A stretch of 64,000 nt of DNA from Oscillospiraceae bacterium (GTDB lineage: Bacteria; Bacillota; Clostridia; Oscillospirales; Butyricicoccaceae), in NCBI GenBank assembly GCA_015068285.1, contig SVKW01000001.1, forward strand, positions 134 to 64,133, written 5' to 3'. Positions 3,701 through 62,417 of this stretch are shown here, piece by piece. Position numbers and translations under genes: made by a program. Numbering within the stretch: position 1 is the stretch's first letter; each line of letters opens with the position of its first letter. The notes under the pieces were generated by a model. The model searched no databases and was not told the DNA's origin. It was given only the letters and a program-made list of their open reading frames with translations.

Positions 3701-4458
3701 TCCTTGATTTCGAGGTACTTATCATAGGAAGCCTTTACTGCTGCGTGCTCGATCTTGATTTCGTCGATCTGTGTCATAAATGTTGTATGACGGCAGTGGT
3801 CGGACCAATAAGTGTCGATCATCTTAAGCTCTGTAAGGCTTGGGTCACGCTTTTCTTCATTCTTGAAGTAGCTCTGGCAGAATGCTACGTCGTCTGTATC
3901 CATAGCAAGACCGTATTCCTTAATGAAGCCAGCGAACTTGTCCTCTGTCATATTGATAAAGCCTTCAATATATGGAGTCTTTTCAGGAACAGGCTGGATG
4001 TTTTCAAGTGTTTCAAACTTTTCAAGGGATGCTTCTCTCATTTCAACAGGGTTGATAATGTGAGCCTTGATGCGTGCAACTTCCTGTTCGGAAAGCTTAC
4101 CGTTAAGAACGATAACCTTTGCACAGCGGCAGATTGGACGAACGCCGCCTGTTACGAACTGGATACACTGCTGAGCGGAGTCTGCGCGCTGGTCAAACTG
4201 GCCAGGGAGGAACTCGATGCCGAAGATGATGCCTTCGTCGTTTACTTCGAAGCATACATCGTCGACCTGTGGCTCGGAGAAGACACTCTTGATTGTCTTC
4301 TGGAATGTTTCTTCGTCGATGCCTTCGACGTCATATCTGTTGTAGATTTTGATATCCTCAAGGTTTACGATACCGAGATTCTTTCTGATATCGTTAAGCA
4401 TTGAGCGCTCTTCATTGGCAAACTCAGCCTTTTTGGATACATAAACTCTAAATACCAT
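763..4458 (-). CDS. purL: Phosphoribosylformylglycinamidine (FGAM) synthase, single-chain form
   Basis: 1231-aa ORF with PurM-like repeats and a C-terminal class I glutamine amidotransferase (GICNGFQALVKLG ... SHGEGRF). Last gene of the pur operon. Confidence 0.95.
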   Translation of the reverse strand: MVFRVYVSKKAEFANEERSMLNDIRKNLGIVNLEDIKIYNRYDVEGIDEETFQKTIKSVFSEPQVDDVCFEVNDEGIIFGIEFLPGQFDQRADSAQQCIQFVTGGVRPICRCAKVIVLNGKLSEQEVARIKAHIINPVEMREASLEKFETLENIQPVPEKTPYIEGFINMTEDKFAGFIKEYGLAMDTDDVAFCQSYFKNEEKRDPSLTELKMIDTYWSDHCRHTTFMTQIDEIKIEHAAVKASYDKYLEIKEQLYPNKNRPCTLMDLATLGAKYLKRTGIMKNLDESEEINACSVKINVDVDGKKQKWLMMFKNETHNHPTEIEPFGGAATCLGGAIRDPLSGRSYVYQAMRLTGAGNPLTPVADTLKGKLPQSKICQTAAAGYSSYGNQIGLATGHVAEVYHDGFVAKRMEVGAVIGAAPAKNVIRKSPECGDVVILLGGATGRDGVGGASGSSKAHDVTSLESCGAEVQKGNPPEERKIQRLFRNGKVTRMIKRCNDFGAGGVSVAIGELADSLKINLDVVPKKYDGLTGTELAISESQERMAVVVAAKDAERFVKEANKENLSAVVVAEVTDTNRLEIFHEGEKIVDLSRDFLNSAGATKYAQVEILNDALTQQVENAPLDEAWEYMMASLNVASQRGLVERFDATIGAGTVLMPFGGKRQMTPAQAMAALIPVREGNTNTASVMAYGYDPFLAQQSPYYGAYYAVVSSVAKMIAAGGDMKNAWLSFQEYFERLRKDPKRWGKPFAALLGGFEAQLALGLGAIGGKDSMSGSFEDIDVPPTLISFVASATKADNVISPEFKRNDTSLYLIQPEKDENGLYNKESLVKTFKNVQKAIEDKRILSAYAVGVGGIAEAVTKMAFGNKIGAKLVNTLSQDELFEKKYGAFVVETDGVLRFGKKIGVTTKDYNIYVHGNILSIEKLEKLWAETLEPVYPTTGGEENKIYENLSYKAEKVLSPLVKAPQPSVLIPVFPGTNCEYDTARAFEKYGAKTEIFVVRNRTPEEVQESAKRLARAIKNSHIVALPGGFSGGDEPDGSAKFIVSLLRNPRVAKEIRALLGKRDGLMCGICNGFQALVKLGLVPYGKIVEPNENNPTLTFNTIGRHQSRLVHTRIASNKSPWLMHTNVGDIHTIAISHGEGRFIVNEKELKKLIKNGQIATQYVDLNGNATSDILFNPNNSVMAIEGITSPDGRVFGKMGHTERNGLHLYKNVPDTQEQLIFKGAVDYYK

Positions 4459-5716
4459 CTCTTTTTCCCCCTATATCCTTTCTATAGAAGCTTTTTTCAA
4501 AGGAAATTTTATCTATATTTTTATATACATGGTCCTGAGCAGACTGTAAATCTTCACCGATATATGTGAGACCGAGCACTCTGCCGCCGTTTGTATAATA
4601 CTTGCCGTCCTTCATTGTTGTGCCGCTGTGGAACACATAGAAGTCTTCGCACTGGCCCTTTTCATCGAGACCTTCAATAAGCTTATTCTTTTCATAGCTG
4701 CCAGGATAGCCGCCCGAAACCATCATAACGCATACGCAGGCGCCATCCTTTGTTTCGATTTCAACATCAGCCAGCTTTTCGTCGATGATAGCGTCCATGA
4801 TTGTGAGCAGATCTGTCTTGAGAAGGGACAGGCAGACCTGAGCTTCAGGGTCGCCGAAACGGCAGTTGTATTCGATGACCTTAGGACCTTCTTCTGTAAT
4901 GATAAGACCGAAGTAAAGCACGCCCTTGAATGTTCTGCCTTCCTTGTTCATGGCTTCCATTGTTGGAATCATGATTTCGCGGACTGCTCTTTCTTCAACT
5001 TCCTTTGTGTAAACAGGGTTTGGAGCGATAACGCCCATACCGCCTGTGTTGAGACCCTTGTCGCCGTCTAAAGCTCTCTTGTGGTCCTTTGCGGAAGTAA
5101 GAGGCTTAATGCACTTGCCGTCTGTGAAAGCGAGGACGGAAACCTCTGTGCCTGTCAGGAACTCTTCGACAACGATTTTGGAGCTGCTTGCGCCAAACAT
5201 ACCGTTATCGATCATTTCATGGATAGCAGACTTTGCTTCTTCAAGGTTTTCAGCGATGATAACGCCCTTGCCGAGAGCAAGACCGGAAGCCTTGATTACG
5301 ACAGGGAACTTGTTCATCTTTTCAACATATTCAATGGCTTTTGCGCTTTCTGTGAAGATTTCGTAAGCGGCTGTAGGAATGCCGTACTTCTTCATAAGAT
5401 CCTTGGCGAAAGCCTTGGAGCCTTCGATGATAGCCGCGTCCTTCTTAGGACCGAAAGCGCGGATACCTGCTTCTTCCATAGCGTCGACCATGCCGAGCAC
5501 CAATGGATCGTCTGGGGAAACTACGCAAAGGTCGATATTTTCCTTCTTGCAGAAATCGACCATGCCTTCTATATCTGTGGCTTTGATCGGCACATTTGTT
5601 GCGAGCGCTCCGATACCGCCGTTGCCAGGAGCGCAGAAGATTTCTCTGCCTTCGCCTGTAAGGCTTTTAATCGTAGCGTGCTCTCTGCCGCCGCCACCTA
5701 CTACCAAAATTTTCAT
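4448..5716 (-). CDS. purD: Phosphoribosylamine-glycine ligase
   Basis: MKILVVGGGGREHA... ATP-grasp GARS. The start was moved to the ATG at 5714-5716, which is preceded by GGAGG. Overlaps the purL start by 11 nt. Confidence 0.95.
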   Translation of the reverse strand: MKILVVGGGGREHATIKSLTGEGREIFCAPGNGGIGALATNVPIKATDIEGMVDFCKKENIDLCVVSPDDPLVLGMVDAMEEAGIRAFGPKKDAAIIEGSKAFAKDLMKKYGIPTAAYEIFTESAKAIEYVEKMNKFPVVIKASGLALGKGVIIAENLEEAKSAIHEMIDNGMFGASSSKIVVEEFLTGTEVSVLAFTDGKCIKPLTSAKDHKRALDGDKGLNTGGMGVIAPNPVYTKEVEERAVREIMIPTMEAMNKEGRTFKGVLYFGLIITEEGPKVIEYNCRFGDPEAQVCLSLLKTDLLTIMDAIIDEKLADVEIETKDGACVCVMMVSGGYPGSYEKNKLIEGLDEKGQCEDFYVFHSGTTMKDGKYYTNGGRVLGLTYIGEDLQSAQDHVYKNIDKISFEKSFYRKDIGGKRDGI

Positions 5717-5745
5717 TATTCCTCCGGAATGAGTGTGTTGTTCTC

Positions 5746-6291
5746 TCATATTTTTCTGATGTTCTGTCTTAAGCTCTGTATCATAAATGTAAATGACAGG
5801 CTGAAAAAGACCTCAAGCAGGCTTGTCACCATACCGATTTCTGTGAAAAACACGGCTGAAAGGGCGATATTCGCCCAGTTCCAGTAAAAATACCTGCGGT
5901 ATTTTGCCCTGTTTCCCTTCCGAAGCCTTATTATAATATGTGTCACGCACAAGTCAGCCATGACTGCCGCCATAAAGCAGCAGGCTGTGTGCAGCCACGC
6001 CATATTGGGCCATTTTTCAGGGAAATAGGGAAGGATTATCCCCGATATCAGCAGGAGTACTGCCGATATCAGGGTGAGTTTTTCAAATACAGTACCGATT
6101 GTGTGTTTTATTATGCTACCCAGGGAAACGCTTATGAAGCCTGCGAAAACCGTTCCCCATACAAGGAACAATTCACGCCGCCCCAATGCGTTGCCCAGCA
6201 CTGTGAAGTTGAGCTCTGTCATGCCGCTGCCCATTACAAAAAACAGAGTAAGGGCGGGAATTATCCCGTAGGCAAAAAGACAGGACAGCAT
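5746..6291 (-). CDS. Hypothetical multi-pass membrane protein embedded in the pur operon
   Basis: 181-aa ORF with several hydrophobic segments, tightly packed between purH and purD. No recognisable family. Confidence 0.55.
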   Translation of the reverse strand: MLSCLFAYGIIPALTLFFVMGSGMTELNFTVLGNALGRRELFLVWGTVFAGFISVSLGSIIKHTIGTVFEKLTLISAVLLLISGIILPYFPEKWPNMAWLHTACCFMAAVMADLCVTHIIIRLRKGNRAKYRRYFYWNWANIALSAVFFTEIGMVTSLLEVFFSLSFTFMIQSLRQNIRKI

Positions 6292-8230: not shown

Positions 8231-8423
8231 GCTGGGGCATTAAGGTGCCTGCGGCGCTATTTAATAAAACGCCCGTCGGGCTACACCTCATCCGTCAGCC
8301 TTACGGCTGCCACCTTCCCAAATGGGGTCCCCGGGCGGCCTGCCGTCTGGGGTATGAATCAAGGGGAAGGCTCTATCCCTCCGCCAATCTTTGATTGACA
8401 CCTCCCCTTACACAGGGGAGGCT
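8231..8423. repeat. REP/BIME-like hairpin mosaic inside the pur operon
   Basis: Modules: cattaaggtgcctgcggcgc, acacctcatcc+gtcagccttacggctg, ccttccc...ggggtccccgggcggcctgccgtctgggg...aggggaagg, and cctcccc-ttacaca-ggggagg. A near-copy of the composite lies at 20901-21046. Confidence 0.85.
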
Positions 8424-8429
8424 TGACCT

Positions 8430-20900: not shown

Positions 20901-21046
20901 GTCCCTTCGGGACATTAAGGTGCCTGCGGCACTATCTGTTAAACGGTCTGCGACCTACACCTCATCCACCACCAAAGGTGGTCCCCCTTCCCGAATGAGG
21001 TCCCCAACAAGCCTGCTTGCTGGGGTGTGAATCAAGGGGAAGGCTC
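20901..21046. repeat. REP/BIME-like mosaic, near-copy of 8231-8372
   Basis: gtccc-ttcg-gggac, cattaaggtgcctgcggcac, acacctcatcc-accacc-aaa-ggtggt-ccccttccc, and a nested ccccaacaagc-ctg-cttgctgggg closed by aggggaagg. Confidence 0.85.
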
Positions 21047-21091: not shown

Positions 21092-22417
21092 ATGGACACC
21101 CGATTACAAAAATTGATTTTTGAAAATCCCGCTGTTTTTAAAGTTTCAAAAGGCGAAGAAACTCTCTGGCTCAATCCGCTCAAAGAGCCTTTTGAGCTTA
21201 TCAGGGACGAACTCTCCGTTACAAAGGAGCAGATTGCCGATGCAAGCGAGCGTCTTGACCGCTTCGCGCCTTTCATCGAGGAGGCTTTCCCTGAAACAAA
21301 GGAAAGTGACGGCATTATCGAATCTCCGCTGCGCGAAATCGAAAATATGAAGGAGCTTCTCTCCCAGAAATTTTCCATCGAAATCGCAGGCAGACTGCTT
21401 CTCAAAATGGACTCCGACCTTCCTATCGCAGGCTCTGTCAAGGCGAGAGGCGGCATTTATGAAGTGCTTTACTACACAGAAAAGCTGGCTCTTGAAAACG
21501 GCATCATCACAGAGGATGATAACTACAGAGAGCTTGTAAATCACAAGGATTTCTTCAATAAATACGCTATCCACGTTGGCTCGACAGGCAATCTCGGTCT
21601 TTCCATCGGCATTATGTCGGCTGTTATCGGCTACCGCGTAACTGTTCATATGTCACGCGAGGCAAAGCAGTGGAAGAAGGATAAGCTTCGCTCCTTTGGG
21701 GTAAATGTTGTTGAATACGACGGCGACTTTACAGAAGCTGTAGCCAAGGGCAGAGCGCTCTCCGACACAGACCCTATGAGCTATTTTGTCGACGACGAAA
21801 ACTCCATCAATCTTTTCATGGGCTATGCTGTTGCGGCAGAGCGTCTTGAAAGACAGCTTTCCGATATGGACATCACAATCGATGAAGATCATCCGCTCTT
21901 TGTCTATCTTCCATGCGGCGTAGGAGGCGCTCCGGGCGGCATTACATTTGGTCTCAAGCACATTTTCGGCGACAATGTACACTGCTTCTTCGTTGAGCCT
22001 ACAAACTGTCCGTCAATGCTTCTCGGTATGGCATCGGGGCTCCACAACGATGTTTCGGTTTACGATATCGGTCTCTCCGGCATCACTCACGCTGACGGTC
22101 TTGCTGTCGGCAGGCCATCAAAGCTTGTTGGCAAGCTGATGGAAAAGTTGCTTTCGGGCGTTTTCACCATTGACGATTACAGACTTTACGATTTTCTCCG
22201 CGACCTGGACAAGAGCGAAGGCATTTTCATCGAGCCTTCCGCCTGCGCGGCATTCAAGGGTGTGCTCGGTCTTGAAGAATATCTTGACGGCAGAGCTTAT
22301 GTTGAGGACAATGAGCTGACCGAGCTTATGGACAATGCTGTGCATATCGCATGGGCAACAGGCGGCGCGCTTGTACCAAGCAAGGAACGCGGCGAGTTTA
22401 TGGAAACTTATTTGTAG
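21092..22417 (+). CDS. dsdA: D-serine ammonia-lyase
   Basis: 441 aa, PLP fold-type II, with GSVKARGG (PLP lysine) and a typical DsdA N-terminus ...ETLWLNP... Confidence 0.88.
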   Translation: MDTRLQKLIFENPAVFKVSKGEETLWLNPLKEPFELIRDELSVTKEQIADASERLDRFAPFIEEAFPETKESDGIIESPLREIENMKELLSQKFSIEIAGRLLLKMDSDLPIAGSVKARGGIYEVLYYTEKLALENGIITEDDNYRELVNHKDFFNKYAIHVGSTGNLGLSIGIMSAVIGYRVTVHMSREAKQWKKDKLRSFGVNVVEYDGDFTEAVAKGRALSDTDPMSYFVDDENSINLFMGYAVAAERLERQLSDMDITIDEDHPLFVYLPCGVGGAPGGITFGLKHIFGDNVHCFFVEPTNCPSMLLGMASGLHNDVSVYDIGLSGITHADGLAVGRPSKLVGKLMEKLLSGVFTIDDYRLYDFLRDLDKSEGIFIEPSACAAFKGVLGLEEYLDGRAYVEDNELTELMDNAVHIAWATGGALVPSKERGEFMETYL

Positions 22418-22465
22418 TATGTAAAAGTTCTCTCCCTCAAAGGAAACCAAGAAAATTTTATGGTA

Positions 22466-22685
22466 ATCTTGCGATTTAATCGAAGTTTCCCCCAGAAATG
22501 TAACCCACCCCAGTCTGTCGATATGTGAGGAACGAACACACAAGGAGTCCAGAGTGCTCTCTGGTCCCGTGATCAAACTGCGTGGACCAGTTTGGGCATT
22601 TTGCTTCTTTTGTGCAAGCATAAAGAAGTCGTCGAAGACGCCCCACGCCTTGCGCGTGGCGGGGAAGTTTGATTTAAGCAAAGAT
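22466..22685. ncRNA. Candidate structured RNA (or MITE) of about 220 nt, unassigned
   Basis: 22466-22492 pairs with 22661-22685 (about 24 bp including G-U pairs, three small bulges). This encloses local hairpins at 22549-22564, 22561-22590, 22604-22628, 22630-22640 and 22643-22659. No credible ORF. Confidence 0.3.
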
Positions 22686-22706
22686 TGAAATTATGCACAG
22701 TGATTT

Positions 22707-22763
22707 ACAACAACCCCTCCACCATTCTGCCGAATGGTCCCCCTCCCCTTGCACAGGGGAGGC
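22707..22763. repeat. Two-hairpin mosaic element (type B)
   Basis: acaacccctcc-accat-tctgccga-atggt-ccccctcccc-ttgcaca-ggggaggc. Confidence 0.85.
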
Positions 22764-22816
22764 AGGGTAGTTCTTCTCAATATAACATTATAAAATAATA
22801 TAAAGGAGTGTTTAAA

Positions 22817-23587
22817 ATGCCTGAGATCAGCCTCAATATGCTGCTCATTTTATGTCCGCTCATCTTCCTCTCCTGCTTTGTCGATGCAGTTGCAGGCGGC
22901 GGCGGTGTTATCTCCCTTCCGGCATACCTTTTCATCGGTCTGCCATCCCACTATGCTCTGGCGAGTAACAAATTCTCCGCTTTCGTCGGCGGTATTTCGG
23001 CAACGCTCAAGTACATCACAAGCGGTAAAATCAACTTCTCCGCTGCCATCTGGTCGGCTGTCGGCGCTCTCATCGGCGCAAGCATCGGCTCCGGCTTTGC
23101 CCTTTTCATCGCGTCCGAAACTCTCAAGACAATCATGCTCATCGCTCTGCCTATCGTTGCGGTTTTCCTCGTCTGGCAGAAGGACAAGATGATTTCTCCA
23201 AAGCCTGTTGAACGCACAAATATTCAGAAAATCGTCATCAGCTTCCTTATCGGTCTCGGCATGGGCATCTATGACGGTCTTATCGGCCCGGGCACAGGCA
23301 CATTCATGATTATGCTTTTCTCTGCCCTCCTCGGCTACGATTTGCTGACATCAAGCGGCTGTGCAAAGCTTTCTAATCTTGCAAGTAACATGGCGAGCGT
23401 TGTAATCTTCCTTTTCAGCGGCAAAATCGTATATATTCTTGCAATTCCTGCCGCTGTCTGCGGCGCATTGGGCGCATATTTCGGCGCAAAGTACGCAATC
23501 AAGGGCGGCAGCAAAAAGGTGCAGTACTTCATGTTCGTCGTGCTCATCATGCTGTTCGTAAAGTTCGCATTCGACCTTTTTGCATAA
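22817..23587 (+). CDS. TauE/SafE (TSUP) family anion exporter
   Basis: Multi-TM protein with ...DAVAGGGGVISLPAYLF... The ATG at 22817 follows AAAGGAG; the track start at 22808 is a GTG. Confidence 0.85.
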   Translation: MPEISLNMLLILCPLIFLSCFVDAVAGGGGVISLPAYLFIGLPSHYALASNKFSAFVGGISATLKYITSGKINFSAAIWSAVGALIGASIGSGFALFIASETLKTIMLIALPIVAVFLVWQKDKMISPKPVERTNIQKIVISFLIGLGMGIYDGLIGPGTGTFMIMLFSALLGYDLLTSSGCAKLSNLASNMASVVIFLFSGKIVYILAIPAAVCGALGAYFGAKYAIKGGSKKVQYFMFVVLIMLFVKFAFDLFA

Positions 23588-23600
23588 GAATAAAAAATTA

Positions 23601-23630
23601 AGACTTCCCGAAAACGGGAAGTCTTTTTTT
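23601..23630 (+). terminator. Terminator after the TSUP gene
   Basis: agacttcccg-aaaa-cgggaagtct followed by TTTTTTT. Confidence 0.8.
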
Positions 23631-23765
23631 ATGTAACAAATTCTGAGCAAAAACAGGTGCGTTTCTGCTCACAAAATGACTCTTGAATTGGTTATATTTT
23701 TATGCTAATATGAAATCAAACAAATGAAGAACTCGCATTAAAATATATTTGTGAAAGGTATTTTG

Positions 23766-24350
23766 ATGAAAAAAACAATAATAAGTATTATTATATTATG
23801 TGTTGTATTTTTTGCTTTTCTATATATGAATAGGGGATATTATATAAATGAACCTTATGATTACTCTATAGGATTAGCTGTTCCAAATAAAGTTGCTAAA
23901 AGAATGACAACATTAGCTTTGCTAGAAACTTTCTTATCCTATCCAGAACCACTTCTTTATACCTCAAGTCAGTTCGTAAATGATTATATAGATACTTTAA
24001 AAAAGTTCGATAATTATGGATTAAATGAACTTATGAGTAGAGAGGATATAGTAGATGCTTTATTAGTTAAGTATAACGAATTAGAAGTGTATACTGGCGA
24101 ATATCACGAATTAGATGGAAGTTACAAGCAAAAGTTAACTGAATATGATGCATATAGATTTATGTGGATAGAGTTTTTAGCATCACAACTGAATTTGGAA
24201 GAAAATTCAGAACTTGTTAGTGCTATAAAGAGCAAGCATATATTATTTTATGATAATAATGGTAATAGGCGTGAACCATATTATCCATGGTACGAGTTTG
24301 CTTTGCAAAACCAAGAACATCAAGATTTTTTACAACATTTTTCACGGTGA
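23766..24350 (+). CDS. Hypothetical membrane-anchored/secreted protein, short paralog (AT-rich islet)
   Basis: N-terminal hydrophobic anchor MKKTIISIIILCVVFFAFLY. It shares a helical domain with the next ORF (MTTLALLETFLSYP vs MTTGALLETYLTHP, 10/14). Confidence 0.7.
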   Translation: MKKTIISIIILCVVFFAFLYMNRGYYINEPYDYSIGLAVPNKVAKRMTTLALLETFLSYPEPLLYTSSQFVNDYIDTLKKFDNYGLNELMSREDIVDALLVKYNELEVYTGEYHELDGSYKQKLTEYDAYRFMWIEFLASQLNLEENSELVSAIKSKHILFYDNNGNRREPYYPWYEFALQNQEHQDFLQHFSR

Positions 24351-24413
24351 AAGGAGTGATTATAGTTAATTTTATCGTTCGTGCACATAGACTAATTTTA
24401 TTAGGAGGTATTT

Positions 24414-25559
24414 ATGAAGAAATTATTATCACTAGTATTGTTGTGTTCTTTCACACTCTCTGTAAGTGCATTAGGAAGCATTGATACGCTTGAGCCTATA
24501 ACTATGTATACCATAGACGAGCCATATCAATATCCAATTGTCCCGAGTATGGATGAATGGGCAGAATTCAATAGTAATATTGATATGATAAATGCTTGTA
24601 TGGTCCCGCAGAGTATAGTTCAACATATGACGACAGGTGCATTATTAGAAACCTACTTAACCCATCCGTTAATTTCTAATATTTTCGCATATGACAATTA
24701 TAGCGAAGCCTTTGAAATTATGAAGAATTATTATGGATTTGGTCTTGATGAGTTAATGCAAAGAGCAGATCTTGCAGAAGTTGTTTTGACTAGATACAAT
24801 GAGATTGATGTGTTTGAAGAAGAGATGAATACAACATTAAGTATTGATGAACAGCTTGAAATCTACGAAACACAAATAAATGATTCATTTACTATGATGT
24901 ATATTGAAACATTAGCTGCAAATATGGACTATGACGAAAATAATCTTAGTCATATCGCACTTCAATCTGCAATTGAGGAAAAAACAAATGATAAAATTGC
25001 AAATATTGAATTTTATGGTGCTACTGCAACCTGTTATTATGATTCTTTGCCGTCAGATTCTGCAGTAGATCCTATGGTTTATTTGGTTGCAGTTACAACA
25101 CCTAAAGGAAATTTAGTAGATGCAGAAAAAAGAGAATTATACGAAGAATGGCCTGCCGCAAGCCTTCTAGCAGTTATGGAACGACATGAAAACTGTTATC
25201 GAAATGCAACTAGAGAACTTCCTGCTACCATCCTTTATAATTGCCATTCATATGCTTGGCATAGTCAAGCTGAAGGTAATGATATTACAATTTGGGATCC
25301 AAGTAGATATATGACAGATGGAAGTTATACTCAAATTGCTACTCCGAGAAGAAATGCGAGAATATATTATGATGCTCCAGTTAACAACAACAATGAAGGA
25401 GGAGTCCATTCTGGTATCGTAACAGCACTTAATCCTACAAGAGTTACATCTAAATGGGGTAACGGCGGATTATATACACATGAATATATGCATTGTCCAT
25501 ATGTTCACCCAGGAAATGCTAGCCAATATCAAGGAACAATCACGTATTGGTATCGCTAA
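24414..25559 (+). CDS. Secreted protein: shared N-terminal domain plus C-terminal predicted Cys-His (papain/CHAP-like) hydrolase domain
   Basis: Signal peptide MKKLLSLVLLCSFTLSVSA. The C-terminal region has YNCHSYAW (candidate nucleophile) and GGVHSGIV (candidate His). RBS AGGAGG. Confidence 0.7.
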   Translation: MKKLLSLVLLCSFTLSVSALGSIDTLEPITMYTIDEPYQYPIVPSMDEWAEFNSNIDMINACMVPQSIVQHMTTGALLETYLTHPLISNIFAYDNYSEAFEIMKNYYGFGLDELMQRADLAEVVLTRYNEIDVFEEEMNTTLSIDEQLEIYETQINDSFTMMYIETLAANMDYDENNLSHIALQSAIEEKTNDKIANIEFYGATATCYYDSLPSDSAVDPMVYLVAVTTPKGNLVDAEKRELYEEWPAASLLAVMERHENCYRNATRELPATILYNCHSYAWHSQAEGNDITIWDPSRYMTDGSYTQIATPRRNARIYYDAPVNNNNEGGVHSGIVTALNPTRVTSKWGNGGLYTHEYMHCPYVHPGNASQYQGTITYWYR

Positions 25560-25574
25560 ATGAGAGGTATTACT

Positions 25575-25778
25575 ATGAAAAGAATAATCGCAACGATATG
25601 TCTGCTTAGCGTACTGTTTACAATGTTTGCAGGTTTCAGCTTTGCAGCACAAAAACACCCAGACGACTGCACCTGTGAAAAGTGCGTCGTCTGCGTGAAA
25701 GACAAAGGTCTTGAATGTCACTGCCCGGCTTGCACAGTTGAGCCGAACTGGGGCTTGGGTGGAGGCAATGAGCCTTAA
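25575..25778 (+). CDS. Small secreted Cys-rich peptide (67 aa)
   Basis: MKRIIATICLLSVLFTMFAGFSFA signal peptide, then AQKHPDDCTCEKCVVCVKDKGLECHCPACTVEPNWGLGGGNEP (7 Cys, a CxCxxC motif twice). ATG at 25575 preceded by GAGAGG. Confidence 0.6.
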   Translation: MKRIIATICLLSVLFTMFAGFSFAAQKHPDDCTCEKCVVCVKDKGLECHCPACTVEPNWGLGGGNEP

Positions 25779-26690
25779 TTACAACTCAATCCCAAACAAT
25801 TCCAAAGCATCTTTACGGATAATCGCATCATATTCTTTACGATCAGTTATTCTGCATAAGTCGAGGGCATCCTTGAGCACAAGGGTGCCTTCTTCTTTTC
25901 TTTTTATGGCGCAGAGACCATAACCTTTATTTACGAGCAACTCGATAAGGCGAGTCAGACGGTTGACACGCATATGACGCTCGATGGCTTCGTCGGCTAT
26001 TTCATAACATTCCTTATAATAATCCAATCTGCCGAGAGCGCGCGAAAGATTATACTGGAACATGATAAGAAAGCGCGATATTTCCTCATCGCTGTCCACA
26101 TCCGGTCTGTTCTTAATATTTTCAACCAGCTTGCGGAAAATTTTTATTACCATTTCATAATCATCTTCTTCTGAATATGTATTGGCAAGCATACTGAGAA
26201 CATTGTATTCATCGCGGCTGAGGTGCATTTTCTCTATCGTATCAACAGAAAAATCCAGATGAACAAGGCTGATGGCATCGTTCAATATCTTTCTTGAGTT
26301 TTCTATATCCTTTTCAACATGCAGAGCATACACAGCCTGAGCACGCATTATCTGCTGCTCAAAATATTTGTTGTCGTCTGTATGCTGTCTGCTTTCTTCA
26401 ACGAGAGCAGGAAGCTTTTCAAACTCCCCTATGCGGATAGCATCTGCAATTTTATCGTGCAGAAGCATCTGCATATACTCATTGTAGGTCGGCTGGTTGA
26501 TATAGTAGCTGACAGGCAGGTCAAGCCTTGTCAGCAGGGCTTCTGCTATAAAGCGTGACGGCTTATGTCTGCCGTTTTCAATGCGGGAAAGAGTCTGGCG
26601 GGAGCAGATACCTTTGCATAAATCGTCTTGCGACATATCAAGCTCTCTGCGGCGGTCGATTATTATTTTTCCGAAATATGTGTTGTCCAT
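25779..26690 (-). CDS. XRE-HTH plus helical-repeat regulator, RRNPP (Rgg/PlcR)-like
   Basis: The N-terminal HTH (MSQDDLCKGICSRQTLSRIENGRHKPS) is followed by about 230 aa of helical, TPR-like sequence. Length (303 aa) and architecture fit peptide-sensing regulators. Confidence 0.7.
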   Translation of the reverse strand: MDNTYFGKIIIDRRRELDMSQDDLCKGICSRQTLSRIENGRHKPSRFIAEALLTRLDLPVSYYINQPTYNEYMQMLLHDKIADAIRIGEFEKLPALVEESRQHTDDNKYFEQQIMRAQAVYALHVEKDIENSRKILNDAISLVHLDFSVDTIEKMHLSRDEYNVLSMLANTYSEEDDYEMVIKIFRKLVENIKNRPDVDSDEEISRFLIMFQYNLSRALGRLDYYKECYEIADEAIERHMRVNRLTRLIELLVNKGYGLCAIKRKEEGTLVLKDALDLCRITDRKEYDAIIRKDALELFGIEL

Positions 26691-26765
26691 AGTTTGTCCC
26701 CCTTTCGTGGGTTATATCATTATTATAGCACAAAAGAAGATTTATTACAATTATCAGCTCAACTG

Positions 26766-26869
26766 ACAACCCCTCCACCATTCTGCGAATGGTCCCCCTC
26801 CCCGATAATGGGGTCCCCGGCAAGCCTGCTTGTTGGGGTGAAATCACAAGGGAGGCTAAGGGGAGGGCG
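26766..26869. repeat. Type B mosaic with nested hairpin
   Basis: acaacccctcc-accat-tctgcga-atggt-ccccctcccc ... ggggtccccggcaagc-ctgc-ttgttgggg ... gggaggct. Confidence 0.85.
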
Positions 26870-26995
26870 TAATATTTTGTAAATTTTTTTCATTTTTTCT
26901 CTTTTCATTTTCTCTATAATGTGATATACTTATTATGTTTCTATATGTTCATTTTTACATAGGGAACAATTTGGTTAAAAGAGAGGTATAAACCT

Positions 26996-28516
26996 ATGTC
27001 TAATGGGGGTAACAATGTCTCCGAGGCTGTAGTTGAAAAGAAGGGCGTTTCCGCCGTTGACTTTTTCTGTATCGGTTTCGGCGCTATCGTAGGTGTAGGA
27101 TGGGCGGTTTCCATCAACGGATGGATGACAAGCTGCGGCGGTCCTATTCCTGCAGCTCTGGGCTATCTTGCAGCTCTTATTCTTATGATTCCTGTAGCGC
27201 TCTGCTACTGTGAACTTGTTCCTATGCTTCCTGTCGCTGGCGGCGGTATGGCTTTCACATATCGCGCATTCAATGACGTGGTTGCAATTATAGACGGCTG
27301 GGCCACCTTTGGTGCCTTTGTCGCCATTATTCCGTGGGAAGCTATTCAGATCACTGACGTTTTAGGTTATCTCATCCCGAATATCAAGTCGGGCGAGCCA
27401 CTCTATAACGTAATGGGCTCTGATATCTATCTCATTTCCATCATTCTCGGCGTGTTCTTCTCGCTCATGCTCTTTGCTCTCAATATGCGTGGTCTTGAAG
27501 CTGCTGCCAAGGTACAGAAAGTTCTCTGCTTCGTTCTCGTAGGCTCGGCTATCATCGGCGCTGTTGCTTCCCTTATCGGCGGCTCCATGGATAACCTCCA
27601 GCCGATGTACGATGTATCCAATCCAAACATTTACGGCGAAGGCCTCAAGAAGGTTTCCCACAGCGGTATGATCGGTGGTATTCTTTCCATCCTTGCTTCC
27701 GCTCCGTTCTTCCTTGCAGGTTTTGAAACAATTCCACAGGGTGTTGAAGAAGCAGGCGGCGACGTTTCTTCTGTTGGTAAGACAGTTGTTCTCTCCGTTG
27801 TTCTCGCTTGTGTATTCTACGCATTCCTTCTCTTCGCATTCGGTACTTCATGGCCATGGCAGGAATTCGCCCTTATGGACGCTCCGGCCGCATCGACCAT
27901 GTTCAAGTCGCTCTATCCTGCTGAAATGTTCGGTCTCGGCATTTCCTTCGGTGAAATCCTTTACTGGTTCATCACAGTCGGCGCTATCGCTGGTCTTTTC
28001 ACAACATGGAACGGCTTCTTCATGGCTTCTGCTACAATGCTTATGAGTATGTCCCGTGGTAAGATTCTCCCTGAAGTATTCTCTCATCAGGACAAGCACG
28101 GCATTCCTGTTCCAGGTCTTCTCGTCTGCCTTGGTCTTTCCATCGCAGGTCCTTTCATGGGCTCCAATCTCGTTGACTCGCTGACTTGCTTCTCCTCCGC
28201 AGGCTTTATTCTTTCCTGGTGCCTCAACTCCTGGTCTCTTGTACGTCTCCGCTACACAGAGCCAGACCTCAAGCGCCCATATAGAATCCCCGGCGGTCTT
28301 GTAACAGGCTACTTTGCTGGATTTATCACAACACTCATTATGGTTCTTATGTTCATCCCAATGAGCCCATTCTTCATCGGCGACCTCGCTGTTAAGATGT
28401 TCTTCGCATGGATGGCAGTCGGTATGGTTCTTTACTTCTCCTGCTACGGCAGACGTAAGGGTCTCACACTTGAAGAAAAGCGCGCTGACATCTTCGCTAA
28501 GATGAACGAGAAGTAG
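26996..28516 (+). CDS. APC-family amino acid permease
   Basis: 506-aa polytopic membrane protein with an APC-like N-terminus ...DFFCIGFGAIVGVGW... Confidence 0.85.
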   Translation: MSNGGNNVSEAVVEKKGVSAVDFFCIGFGAIVGVGWAVSINGWMTSCGGPIPAALGYLAALILMIPVALCYCELVPMLPVAGGGMAFTYRAFNDVVAIIDGWATFGAFVAIIPWEAIQITDVLGYLIPNIKSGEPLYNVMGSDIYLISIILGVFFSLMLFALNMRGLEAAAKVQKVLCFVLVGSAIIGAVASLIGGSMDNLQPMYDVSNPNIYGEGLKKVSHSGMIGGILSILASAPFFLAGFETIPQGVEEAGGDVSSVGKTVVLSVVLACVFYAFLLFAFGTSWPWQEFALMDAPAASTMFKSLYPAEMFGLGISFGEILYWFITVGAIAGLFTTWNGFFMASATMLMSMSRGKILPEVFSHQDKHGIPVPGLLVCLGLSIAGPFMGSNLVDSLTCFSSAGFILSWCLNSWSLVRLRYTEPDLKRPYRIPGGLVTGYFAGFITTLIMVLMFIPMSPFFIGDLAVKMFFAWMAVGMVLYFSCYGRRKGLTLEEKRADIFAKMNEK

Positions 28517-36880: not shown

Positions 36881-37026
36881 ACAACCCCTCCACCGCTGAC
36901 CGCGGTCCCCCTCCCCGATAATGAGGTCCCCGACAAGCCTGCTTGTTGGGGTGTGAATCACAGGTAGGCTGAATTCTCTCCCTCCGTCATCGCAAAGCGA
37001 TGCCACCTCCCTCGTCAGAGGGAGGC
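36881..37026. repeat. Two adjacent type B mosaics
   Basis: acaacccctcc-accgc-tga-ccgcggt-ccccctcccc ... nested ccccgacaagc-ctgc-ttgttgggg, then ctccctccgtca-tcgc-aaa-gcga-tgccacctccc-tcgtcaga-gggaggc. Confidence 0.85.
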
Positions 37027-38336: not shown

Positions 38337-38398
38337 TACCCCTCCACCATTCTACGAATGGTCCCCCTCCCCTCGCAAGGGGAGGCTGGGGGGTGGGA
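38337..38398. repeat. Type B mosaic element
   Basis: tacccctcc-accat-tctacga-atggt-ccccctcccc-tcgcaa-ggggaggc. Confidence 0.85.
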
Positions 38399-40395: not shown

Positions 40396-40857
40396 AGCCT
40401 TCCCCTCGAGGGGAAGGCTTTATTCGGGCCGTCGGGGACGCCGGTCCCTACACGGCTTCTGCAAACCGATGGAAAGATTCTTCGCATTCGCTCAGAATGA
40501 CAGATAGTTTTAAGCCTCCCCTTGTTAAGGGGAGGTGCTGAACGCAGTGAAGCGGAGGGGTGTAGGGCGTAGCCCGTCTATTTAATCCACAACCCCTCCA
40601 CCATCGTTCCGATGGTCCCCCTCCCCTTGTTAAGGGGAGGCTAAGTGAGATTGGTTGTAGGGGCGAGCATTGCTCGTCCGGAATATTATTTCACAACCCC
40701 TCCGACGGCTAACGCCGCCACCTCCCCTTGCACAGGGGAGGCTAACAGGTTTGCAACCGCACTTTTTCACTATCGACCGGCGAGAGCAAGCCCCCGCCCT
40801 ACAGTGCCACCTCATCCACCATCTACGATGGTCCCCCTTCCCCTCAAGGGGAAGGCT
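40396..40857. repeat. Mosaic of about 0.46 kb made only of hairpin modules
   Basis: In order: ccttcccc-tcga-ggggaagg; gggccg-tcggggacgc-cggtcc-CTACA; gattcttcgcattcgctcagaatgaca; cctcccc-ttgttaa-ggggagg; a type B element; GTAG-gggcgagca-t-tgctcgtcc; a type B variant; ggcgagagcaagcccccgcc-CTACA; a type B element. Confidence 0.9.
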
Positions 40858-47530: not shown

Positions 47531-47952
47531 AGTAAGGCGGAATGTCGAGGGCGCCATTCCCTACAAATAATCCGTGAAACCACTTCGCAGAGGCTGATGC
47601 CCACATCAGCCCGCAGGACGTTGACAAGCACCGTTCCCTGCATGGGATTGTATAAAAGGGAAAGAGATTCTTCACTTCGTTCAGAATGACAGAAAGTTTT
47701 CCTGCCTCCCTCTGACGAGGGAGGGGGACCACGAAGTGGTGGAAGGAGAGAAACCTATCCAATCCGTCGGAGACACCGCACCTCTTCACTTTTACGCGGC
47801 GAGAGCAAGCCCCCGCCCTACAGGACACCTCATCCGTCAGCTTCGCTGACACCTTCCCAAATGGGGTCCCCGACAAGCCTGCTTGTTGGGGTGTGAATCA
47901 AGGGGAAGGCAGAAATAAGATTGTTCGCAGGGGGCGGGCATTGCTCGTCTGC
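47531..47952. repeat. Mosaic of about 0.42 kb made of hairpin modules
   Basis: ggaatg-tcgagggcgc-cattcc-CTACA (47539-47565); ggctgatg-ccca-catcagcc; ggacg-ttgacaagcac-cgttcc-CTGCA; attcttcacttcgttcagaatgaca; the 76-nt unit at 47703-47778; ggcgagagcaagcccccgcc-CTACA; a long type B element; gggcgggcattgctcgtctgc. Confidence 0.9.
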
Positions 47953-61853: not shown

Positions 61854-62417
61854 CTATTTCTTAATAATTCGGTGATAGGCATTCTTCACAGGCTTATAAA
61901 GCAGGGCAATGCCCACAACTGTGAAGGCTGAATTGATGAATGTTGCAGGAATTGCCGTAAGCTCGGCAATGAAAGCGGCGCCGAGAGAGCTGCCCATGAT
62001 TGTAAGCTCGATGGTATTCCATACAAGGTCGAGAACTGTGTTGGCGATGCCGTAAATCACCGAGCAGATGATGGCGTAAATGTATTCCTTTTTGCTGTCG
62101 CCGTCTGCCTTTTTGCAGAGGGCAAGGAAGATATAGCCGACGAGAAGGCACTTGATGACTGTGCAGCAGAATACGTTTGGAATTGCGTGTATATAGCCGT
62201 TCATAACGTCAAAAATCACATAGCCGATAACGCCTGCGATGGCGGCACGGACAGGACCGAGGCACACTATTGCAAGCATAACGAAAATGTGTCCGAAATG
62301 TACGAATGGAGTGCCCACAGCGGCAGGCAACGGGATTCGGAATGCCTGAATGCCCATAAATATGATTGCTGCAAAAAGAGCTGTTGCGGCGATGGATTTT
62401 GTATTTGTCTGTTTCAT
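61854..62417 (-). CDS. ECF-transporter S (substrate-capture) component, specificity unknown
   Basis: 187-aa, 6-TM protein, MKQTNTKSIAATALFAAIIFMGIQAFRIPLP... Confidence 0.7.
   Translation of the reverse strand: MKQTNTKSIAATALFAAIIFMGIQAFRIPLPAAVGTPFVHFGHIFVMLAIVCLGPVRAAIAGVIGYVIFDVMNGYIHAIPNVFCCTVIKCLLVGYIFLALCKKADGDSKKEYIYAIICSVIYGIANTVLDLVWNTIELTIMGSSLGAAFIAELTAIPATFINSAFTVVGIALLYKPVKNAYHRIIKK

Follow-up and report, generated by a model that had tools for sequence, protein, structure and literature searches.

A 64,000-nucleotide (nt) stretch of DNA from an uncultured rumen Oscillospiraceae bacterium, called the window below, contains a small cysteine-rich peptide gene that meets a transcriptional regulator gene end to end. 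On balance, we lean towards reading these two genes, together with the operon to which the peptide gene belongs, as one module: a PlcR-type autoinducing quorum-sensing circuit of the RRNPP family. How would such a circuit work? The regulator would be made from its own constitutive-looking promoter. It would bind a palindrome upstream of a weak -35 element and, once loaded with imported peptide, activate an operon (23766-25778, + strand) that yields strain-variable secreted cargo and a constant pro-peptide of 67 amino acids (aa). The pro-peptide would be exported by Sec, and a fragment of it, either the P-x-W-G-G segment or an H-P-x-x-C-x-C-x-x-C unit, would re-enter the cell as the ligand of the regulator. 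The ligand-bound regulator would thereby close a positive-feedback loop, as in PlcR-PapR. Processing, import and binding of the peptide, activation at the palindrome and termination at two sites within the coding sequences are steps that we infer. The sub-family to which the module belongs comes from uncultured rumen and gut Oscillospiraceae.

The convergent gene pair

The two genes and their parts are laid out as follows.

25575-25778, + strand: peptide gene, encoding the 67-aa Cys/His-rich pro-peptide; TAA at 25776-25778
25575-25649, + strand: predicted signal peptide, aa 1-25
25656-25733, + strand: core HPDDCTCEKCVVCVKDKGLECHCPAC, aa 28-53
25734-25775, + strand: tail TVEPNWGLGGGNEP, aa 54-67
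25779-26690, - strand: regulator gene, encoding a 303-aa putative PlcR-like RRNPP transcription factor; stop codon at 25779-25781, TTA on the + strand
Regulator aa 6-62: predicted XRE helix-turn-helix (HTH); aa ~69-299: predicted tetratricopeptide-repeat (TPR)-like peptide-binding domain

These coordinates confirm the observation of an earlier note on this DNA that the 67-aa open reading frame (ORF) and the 303-aa regulator gene converge with abutting stop codons; the number of intergenic bases between the stops is zero. An alternative in-frame ATG at 25560 would give a 72-aa peptide. The 67-aa form is nevertheless the real one, given the AGAGG at 25563-25567, a ribosome-binding site placed 7 nt before the ATG at 25575, and the MK(R/K) start shared by all homologues of the peptide.

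The regulator as a PlcR-like receptor

Judged by sequence profile, AlphaFold model and Foldseek comparison, the regulator is an RRNPP-type receptor whose closest characterized counterpart is PlcR. Pfam places HTH_3 at residues 12-62 (E 1.3e-9), in a region that aligns with the PlcR HTH. The Pfam domain RNPP_C scores 24.1 bits on the window regulator, below the 26.5-bit cut-off, and is present among the precomputed domain matches of its homologues. When a profile of the regulator family was compared with the PDB, PlcR (2qfc) matched over its full length (PlcR residues 6-275, E 9e-13). The AlphaFold model (predicted local distance difference test, pLDDT, 90.7) is all-helical, with an HTH followed by a helical-repeat domain. 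Its top Foldseek matches are all RRNPP receptors: PlcR-PapR (3u3w, 2qfc) comes first, followed by Rgg2, ComR and PrgX. No Rgg model in NCBIfam matched the regulator, and its closest annotated relatives are HTH regulators of Bacillus cereus-group plasmids, at ~28% identity.

The putative peptide-binding domain contains three asparagines, N170, N214 and N254, that are invariant in the regulator family and spaced about one repeat apart. In the profile alignment, N214 falls on PlcR N201 (YN motif), which we take to be the conserved peptide-binding Asn of PlcR, and N170 falls on PlcR N163. One hallmark of RNPP proteins is a conserved Asn forming hydrogen bonds with the backbone of the peptide (PMC3601957, PMC3763537). 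The earlier suggestion that an XRE HTH with helical repeats marks an RRNPP-type peptide sensor is thus borne out by the PlcR profile match, the model and Foldseek, and the view of the C-terminal domain as a TPR-like peptide-binding fold held on modelling.

A small family of cysteine-rich peptides

The peptide begins with MKR, followed by a hydrophobic stretch and S-F-A|A at positions -3 to +1. These make up the three regions (n, h and c) expected of a Sec signal, which was identified by eye. The mature part, AQKHPDDCTCEKCVVCVKDKGLECHCPACTVEPNWGLGGGNEP, is hydrophilic and Cys-rich. Its seven cysteines (C32, C34, C37, C40, C48, C50 and C53) form CxCxxC twice with one Cys over, ahead of a Trp/Gly-rich tail, in agreement with what had been reported for the peptide. 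The accompanying claim that it is the only small exported peptide nearby stands for ORFs of at least 30 aa between 22 and 30 kb; very short leaderless ORFs fall outside that scope.

Three homologues of the peptide came out of a word-indexed search through 5.8 billion proteins. An exhaustive profile search of 1.84 billion representative proteins recovered the family together with P0136 (63 aa) and P0137 (51 aa), both remote relatives. The profile also matched P0135 (4340 aa), a mucin-like protein that we rejected as a chance match. All NCBI copies of the peptide are labelled 'hypothetical protein'. A scan of viral_contigs found nothing, and a scan of genome_contigs matched a single metagenome-assembled genome (MAG), of Oscillospiraceae. 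Scans of metagenome_contigs with the peptide and regulator alignments gave no match either; since the window is itself a JGI metagenome contig, we read that result as a limit of the scan. The family is tiny and unannotated, and its constant Cys/His core is absent elsewhere among the 1.84 billion representative proteins. After their signal peptides, the remote relatives read as follows.

P0136: HPQNCHCKEC-LLK-HPDDCSCPYC-SAEPNWGGGVNAG
P0137: HPEDCECEEC-MITPLWGGGGGDDA

Comparison with these two proteins defines the essential parts of the peptide: a signal peptide, one or two H-P-x-x-C-x-C-x-x-C units, and P-x-W-G-G followed by a short hypervariable Gly/Asp-rich end. With a ratio of nonsynonymous to synonymous divergence (dN/dS) of ~0.2-0.5, the peptide gene is under purifying selection.

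Might the two halves of the mature peptide have separate tasks? In a bifunctional pro-peptide, the Cys/His core would act as a pro-domain that senses metal or redox state and gates the release or activity of a C-terminal P-x-W-G-G pheromone, and quorum signalling would then depend on metal or redox conditions outside the cell. The Cys unit or units and the PxWGG tail do both survive separately in the remote relatives with one or two units, and the peptide of one locus, L021, keeps its H/Cys pattern even though it has lost the RNA hairpin that the peptide genes of other modules contain. This idea is pure inference, with no precedent in the literature searched, and we hold it to be distinctly improbable.

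Pairing of peptide and regulator

Twelve distinct modules were compared: those of the window and of loci L013, L014, L018, L020, L012, L009, L019, L021, L025, L026 and L030. A thirteenth is implied by the proteins P0002 and P0009, for each of which the longest contig is 1486 nt. The contigs related to the window come from ruminant gut assemblies, and the genes around the window module include SpoIIGA and a sporulation-type sigma factor.

A peptide of 51-67 aa with a Sec-type N-terminus is encoded in an operon converging on the regulator gene in every module (12/12). Neither regulators of only 32-50% identity nor the remote relatives P0136 and P0137 break the pairing. The peptide gene is the last of its operon in 11 of the 12 modules, where its position relative to the regulator gene ranges from a 3-nt gap to an 11-nt overlap. 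The remaining arrangement is that of L021-L023, in which the order is peptide, 207-aa protein, 387-aa protein. Here the peptide gene comes first in the operon, 1.9 kb from the end of the regulator gene in L021, and the 387-aa gene abuts a regulator gene whose product is 95-96% identical to that of the window. Pairing of peptide and regulator is therefore obligatory in the modules examined, while abutment of the regulator gene with the peptide gene is not. Co-occurrence of the two across genomes had been proposed as a check and was found; it rules out the coincidental juxtaposition that had also been considered. The upstream genes, put forward as further companions to be followed, are not constant, as the cargo differs between modules.

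The MAG GCA_017441945.1 illustrates how much can change around the peptide within one species. Its flanking genes are 95% (PALP), 97% (TauE) and 95% (AA_permease) identical in nucleotide sequence to those of the window, with a synonymous divergence (dS) of 0.13-0.19 for PALP and TauE, and this identity makes the two strains conspecific. At the TauE locus of the MAG (L014), the module is inverted, the cargo is different, and the regulator is 47% identical to that of the window with saturated dS, whereas the peptide gene is 91% identical with a dS of 0.15. The MAG has a second module beside AA_permease (L030). The single module of the window (23588-26995) sits exactly between TauE and AA_permease. 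The two loci of the MAG look as if they had been fused by recombination in the window, possibly via the conserved peptide gene; a binning error in the MAG is also possible.

The regulators themselves are mosaic. In alignment columns 0-75, the HTH region, the L030 regulator (5194-6123) is identical to that of L020 (754-1677), and in its C-terminal 85 columns it is 93% identical to that of L018 (1339-2268). Furthermore, L013 joins a window-type regulator and promoter to L020-type cargo and an L020-type peptide tail. From these combinations it follows that cargo and regulator alleles recombine freely around a constant peptide core and that both are hypervariable within one species.

The genes feoA and feoB (ferrous-iron transport) flank the module in L013, L014, L018 and L021 but do not do so in the window. 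Their position may reflect no more than synteny, or it may point to a link with metals.

Could the peptide instead be a regulated secreted effector, whether metal-chelating, redox-active or antimicrobial, with the true pheromone encoded elsewhere, as with orphan RRNPP regulators? We regard this, the main rival, as unlikely, though it deserves serious thought. The 26 core residues hold 7 Cys and 2 His in H-x3-C-x-C-x2-C units that resemble a metal site rather than a pheromone, yet the size of the peptide and its Sec signal are typical of RRNPP pro-peptides, and its mature form is anionic (net charge ~-3), unlike most bacteriocins. An effector would be expected to keep a constant core while regulators diverge to 45-50% identity, as is seen. 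RRNPP regulators also commonly control neighbouring secreted products (PMC10075063, PMC10518010). Against this, the peptide is the sole component present in every module, all other cargo being swapped, and no other conserved small ORF accompanies the regulator. Nor is there a conserved immunity or transporter gene among the modules. Adjacency to FeoAB, which would suit a metal-binding product, can be read as synteny among relatives; it is absent from L009, L026 and L030 as well as from the window.

Transcription of the peptide gene

Is the peptide gene expressed? In three metatranscriptomes, contigs containing the conserved part of the gene (25575-25754) have word depths of 11-117 and extend into the upstream cargo. 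No contigs from the same metatranscriptomes fall on PALP and TauE beside the module, two genes with 93-97% conservation among the compared strains; this makes DNA carry-over unlikely. One RNA contig, from run X3, leads from cargo through the peptide gene and stops at 25864, leaving 25865-26690, the remainder of the regulator gene, uncovered; its end fits termination at that site and a regulator mRNA that is far less abundant. Two further runs, X1 and X2, bear the label TRANSCRIPTOMIC, but their evenly covered contigs, as long as 184 kb, resemble those of DNA metagenomes, and we left both runs out of the expression evidence. The peptide gene is real and transcribed. Its homologues, a dN/dS below 1 and the metatranscriptome contigs all agree with the earlier expectation that it be conserved and expressed.

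Interdigitated predicted terminators

Why is there no DNA between the two genes? The absence of an intergenic region may be explained by two predicted terminators that are interdigitated with the coding sequences (CDS), one lying in codons 262-277 of the regulator gene and the other in codons 25-41 of the peptide gene.

25863-25907, + strand: predicted intrinsic terminator of the operon, within the regulator CDS (codons I262-D277, motif KRKEEGTLVLKDAL); 13-bp stem at 25863-25892, then a T-run
25647-25697, - strand: predicted intrinsic terminator of the regulator gene, within the peptide CDS (codons A25-V41, AQK-HPDDCTCEKCVVCV); hairpin from 25697 to 25656, T-run TTTTTGTGC from 25655 to 25647

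The predicted operon terminator is the best terminator-like site of the region (fold z = -3.55) and is found in 11 of 12 modules. Across eight diverged sequences its stem is 96% paired, with one double change from A-U to G-C. For residues that do not vary among eight regulators, pairs of sequences agree in codon at a rate of 0.86 in the terminator segment and 0.47 elsewhere (permutation p = 0.0002). Within the segment, GGC is fixed for Gly, CTT for Leu and GCC for Ala, while dS is otherwise saturated among the regulators. The site is under synonymous constraint.

The hairpin in the peptide CDS has a predicted energy of -25.7 kcal/mol and lies 81 nt past the regulator stop codon. All modules in which a two-motif peptide is encoded by the last gene (9/9) have such a hairpin, at 69-84 nt. 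In L021, where the peptide gene has been relocated, the protein keeps AQKHPDDCTCDKCNEC and the H/Cys pattern, and synonymous changes together with a VV-to-NE change destroy the hairpin. The peptide genes of L009 and L019 are equally diverged but adjacent to the regulator gene, and they keep the hairpin (-25.8 and -24.9 kcal/mol). Retention of the pattern without the hairpin indicates that selection acts on the cysteines of the protein itself, and the hairpin seems to persist only in positions from which it could terminate the regulator transcript. In L026, representing the modules with the 51-aa peptide, a strong, terminator-like hairpin CCCTCGG...CCGAGGG (3916-4000) lies between the cargo and peptide genes, beyond the 51-aa gene, with a T-run on the strand of the regulator only. 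With a terminator at this position, regulator transcript would run antisense over the full length of the peptide gene.

Each hairpin is followed by a U-run on one strand only, so both predicted terminators would be unidirectional. Since each lies within the CDS of its partner, the two mRNAs should share complementary 3' ends of ~260 nt (25647-25907). The expectation that each transcript reads into the other gene, raised in the earlier note from the abutting stops, is upheld by these predicted positions.

A strong hairpin on the opposite strand of part of the peptide CDS could by itself conserve nucleotides, and this raises the question of whether the ORF is spurious, a by-product of a terminator region, or merely a chance neighbour of the regulator gene. 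This explanation is effectively refuted. The signal peptide, ribosome-binding site and Cys pattern are kept in 12/12 modules, and L021 retains the ORF 1.9 kb from the end of the regulator gene after losing the hairpin. Moreover, the remote versions differ in nucleotide sequence, dN/dS is below 1, and the gene is transcribed.

Promoters and a candidate operator

The sequences upstream of the two transcription units differ in kind.

23641-23674, no strand: inverted repeat, candidate operator, core TGAGCA-N16-TGCTCA at 23644-23671; 8 bp upstream of the operon -35
23683-23711, + strand: putative operon promoter, weak, sigma-A-type, read from the sequence; TTGAAT at 23683-23688, 17-nt spacer, TAATAT at 23706-23711
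26722-26750, - strand: putative regulator promoter; TTGTAA, 17-nt spacer, TG-extended TATAAT; no palindrome

The arms of the inverted repeat in the window are 14 nt long and 86% complementary, and the core palindrome has a single match in the 64-kb window. Larger inverted repeats, whose arms measure 14-31 nt, are found at the corresponding place in L021, L013, L014, L012 and L009, making six modules with that of the window. In L014, where the module is inverted between its flanking genes, the palindrome has moved along with it and so belongs to the module. Its conservation among the window, L013 and L021 may partly reflect shared flanking DNA. The palindrome would be the operator bound by the regulator.

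The operon promoter agrees with the consensus at 8 of 12 positions, under the threshold of the scan, and its TCTTG/-35 block and -10 element align across six modules. Such weakness would be expected of an activator-dependent promoter. The regulator promoter is the best promoter-like match of the region, with 10 of 12 positions and the TG extension, and comparable TGTGCTATAAT elements lie upstream of the regulator gene in L013, L018, L020, L021 and L030. No Rfam family was found in 22400-27100.

One copy of a GC-rich repeated intergenic element lies between the regulator promoter and the amino-acid permease gene. The element consists of CCCCTCCACC...GGTCCCCCTCCCC, a short loop and GGGGAGG, and it has the look of a repetitive extragenic palindrome (REP) or a miniature inverted-repeat transposable element (MITE). 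Its many copies in the window lie at ~8401-8425, 20979-21027, 22710-22766, 26762-26870, 36881-36953, 38338-38390, 40515-40750 and 47860-47893, and it also occurs at L014:6917-7480 and L018:1069-1338. In metagenome runs it shows very high depth and many contig ends.

Cargo genes

Two cargo genes precede the peptide gene in the window.

23766-24350, + strand: cargo gene 1, 194-aa protein, predicted to be secreted or anchored; helical domain of unknown function
24414-25559, + strand: cargo gene 2, 381-aa protein, predicted to be secreted; N-terminal helical domain and C-terminal alpha/beta domain

The start of cargo gene 1 is ambiguous (23751-24350): gene callers give 148 or 194 aa, the longest ORF runs for 199 aa from a GTG at 23751, and the best ribosome-binding site is at the ATG at 23766. 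Its product has no match in Pfam or NCBIfam. With the N-terminal 190 aa of the 381-aa protein it shares 30% identity, and its family also takes in the 207-aa protein of L021 and an array of genes in L024.

The 381-aa protein has 142 homologues across Firmicutes. Invariant in this family are YNCHSYAW (with C277), HS, SKW, H332 and H356, and the invariant Cys and His suggest that the C-terminal domain may be a papain/CHAP-like Cys-His enzyme. Pfam CHAP was matched in 1 of 27 homologues (E 7e-5), and NCBI labels one homologue a CHAP-domain protein. The AlphaFold model (pLDDT 88.6) gave nothing significant in a Foldseek search of the PDB, the best match being a Staphylococcus aureus amidase (E 0.057), and a profile of the family had no match in the PDB. 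This upstream hydrolase-like protein had been suggested to process the peptide. It proves to be variable cargo that also occurs without peptide or regulator, and its absence from most modules means that it is not a general peptide-processing enzyme.

Three classes of cargo can be told apart. Class A is a family of ~200-aa secreted helical-domain proteins, comprising the 199-aa form of the first window protein, the N-terminus of the 381-aa protein and the 207-aa and 387-aa proteins of L021. L024:2477-8730 encodes eight paralogous secreted proteins of this class (~214-233 aa) and one of 375 aa, with no regulator or Cys peptide nearby. Class B proteins (226-248 aa; L009, L012, L013, L020, L026 and L030) have a signal peptide and a C-terminal membrane anchor. 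Class C consists of singletons.

The neighbourhoods also bear on whether the peptide is the precursor of a ribosomally synthesized and post-translationally modified peptide (RiPP), of a SCIFF/ranthipeptide- or sactipeptide-like kind, under quorum-sensing control. A small Cys-rich peptide adjoining an RRNPP regulator would suit such a system, and Rgg/SHP systems do regulate RiPPs made by radical S-adenosylmethionine (radical-SAM) enzymes (PMC13361665). However, no radical-SAM enzyme, other maturase or dedicated transporter is encoded in any module neighbourhood, the cargo proteins across modules have no Pfam match, and the peptide has a Sec signal peptide in place of a RiPP leader. We consider a RiPP precursor very improbable.

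Points that weigh against the circuit

Several observations count against an autoinducing circuit of the PlcR type or soften the evidence for it. Unlike pherotype pairs, peptide and regulator do not diversify together: the core of the peptide hardly varies (dS 0.1-0.2), and dS among the regulators is saturated. Nor does the variable tail follow the regulator clades, among which it is shuffled (for example, L013 versus L020 and L012 versus L030), and its last residues are partly dictated by antisense overlap with the last codons of the regulator gene. For these two reasons we rejected the tail as a firm specificity determinant, and the ligand epitope cannot be assigned to one part of the peptide. 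No PlcR box (TATGNAN4TNCATA) lies near the module; the window has one match with 1 mismatch, at 62190, a number below what chance alone would give. Covariation in the stem of the operon terminator is not above that of shuffled alignments, a test made uninformative by the fact that most columns never vary. The loss of the peptide-CDS hairpin upon relocation is known from one relocated module (L021-L023). The RNA evidence consists of unstranded assembled contigs, whose ends may be assembly breaks at inverted repeats. Finally, richness in cysteine is not a feature of known RRNPP pro-peptides, and the literature searched contains no description of a Cys-rich one.

Implications

The module adds an unannotated RRNPP sub-family whose pro-peptide resembles none described, and peptide signalling might carry chemical information on metal or redox state. 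One may go further and imagine that the metal binding or thiol/disulfide state of the Cys units decides whether the P-x-W-G-G pheromone is released or recognized, and that, through their complementary 3' ends, the operon and regulator mRNAs each control how stable the other is; the two together would make a toggle out of codons with a double use. To this extended scheme we attach little credence.

Two convergent genes each appear to encode the terminator of the other, and L021 offers a natural 'relocation experiment' on that arrangement. The embedded terminators may help to explain the invariance of the protein motifs KEEGxLVLKDA and DDCTCEKCVVC, which calls for caution when such conservation is interpreted or such genes are recoded. 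Within one species, the sets of secreted proteins vary from strain to strain, as would be expected if they served competition between strains or acted as niche factors in the rumen.

Comparison with known systems

PlcR-PapR is the model for the proposed circuit. Both receptors have an XRE HTH and a TPR-like domain, both systems encode a small pro-peptide with a Sec-type signal peptide beside the receptor, and in both, control of secreted proteins and positive feedback on the peptide gene are expected. The regulator described here is only ~19-28% identical to PlcR, and further differences are plain. The papR gene lies downstream of plcR and is co-directional with it, whereas the peptide gene of our module is convergent. 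PapR has no Cys-rich core. The predicted terminators of the module lie within the CDS of the partner gene, and a longer palindrome, instead of a PlcR box, abuts the -35 element.

Facing genes are also known from PrgX/prgQ (iCF10) on plasmid pCF10 from Enterococcus faecalis, where the receptor gene and the peptide operon give complementary overlapping RNAs. PrgX is an RRNPP receptor and a Foldseek match to our regulator, and convergent transcription with overlapping RNAs would be common to both systems. In pCF10, however, the overlap is at the 5' ends, between facing promoters, and acts by transcriptional interference and antisense RNA; here it would be at the 3' ends, between two predicted terminators.

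Overlapping 3' untranslated regions (UTRs) of convergent genes and bidirectional terminators occur in Firmicutes, with transcripts ending past each other's stop codons. The present pair differs in having two separate predicted terminators, each unidirectional and each made wholly of codons of the partner gene. It differs further in its measurable synonymous constraint and in the loss of a hairpin after relocation.

The convergent, overlapping layout itself, held in the earlier note to be unusual for RRNPP systems, has a precedent in Group III Rgg/SHP systems such as rgg1299 of Streptococcus thermophilus, where shp is convergent with rgg and overlaps its 3' end (PMC13361665). These systems share with ours an RRNPP-fold receptor and a convergent peptide gene at the 3' end of the receptor gene, an arrangement seen in 11 of the 12 modules. 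SHPs are short, hydrophobic and without a Sec signal, in contrast to a hydrophilic 67-aa peptide with a Sec-type signal and seven cysteines. Moreover, the receptor of our module is nearer to PlcR than to Rgg, and its peptide is encoded by the last gene of a multi-gene operon.

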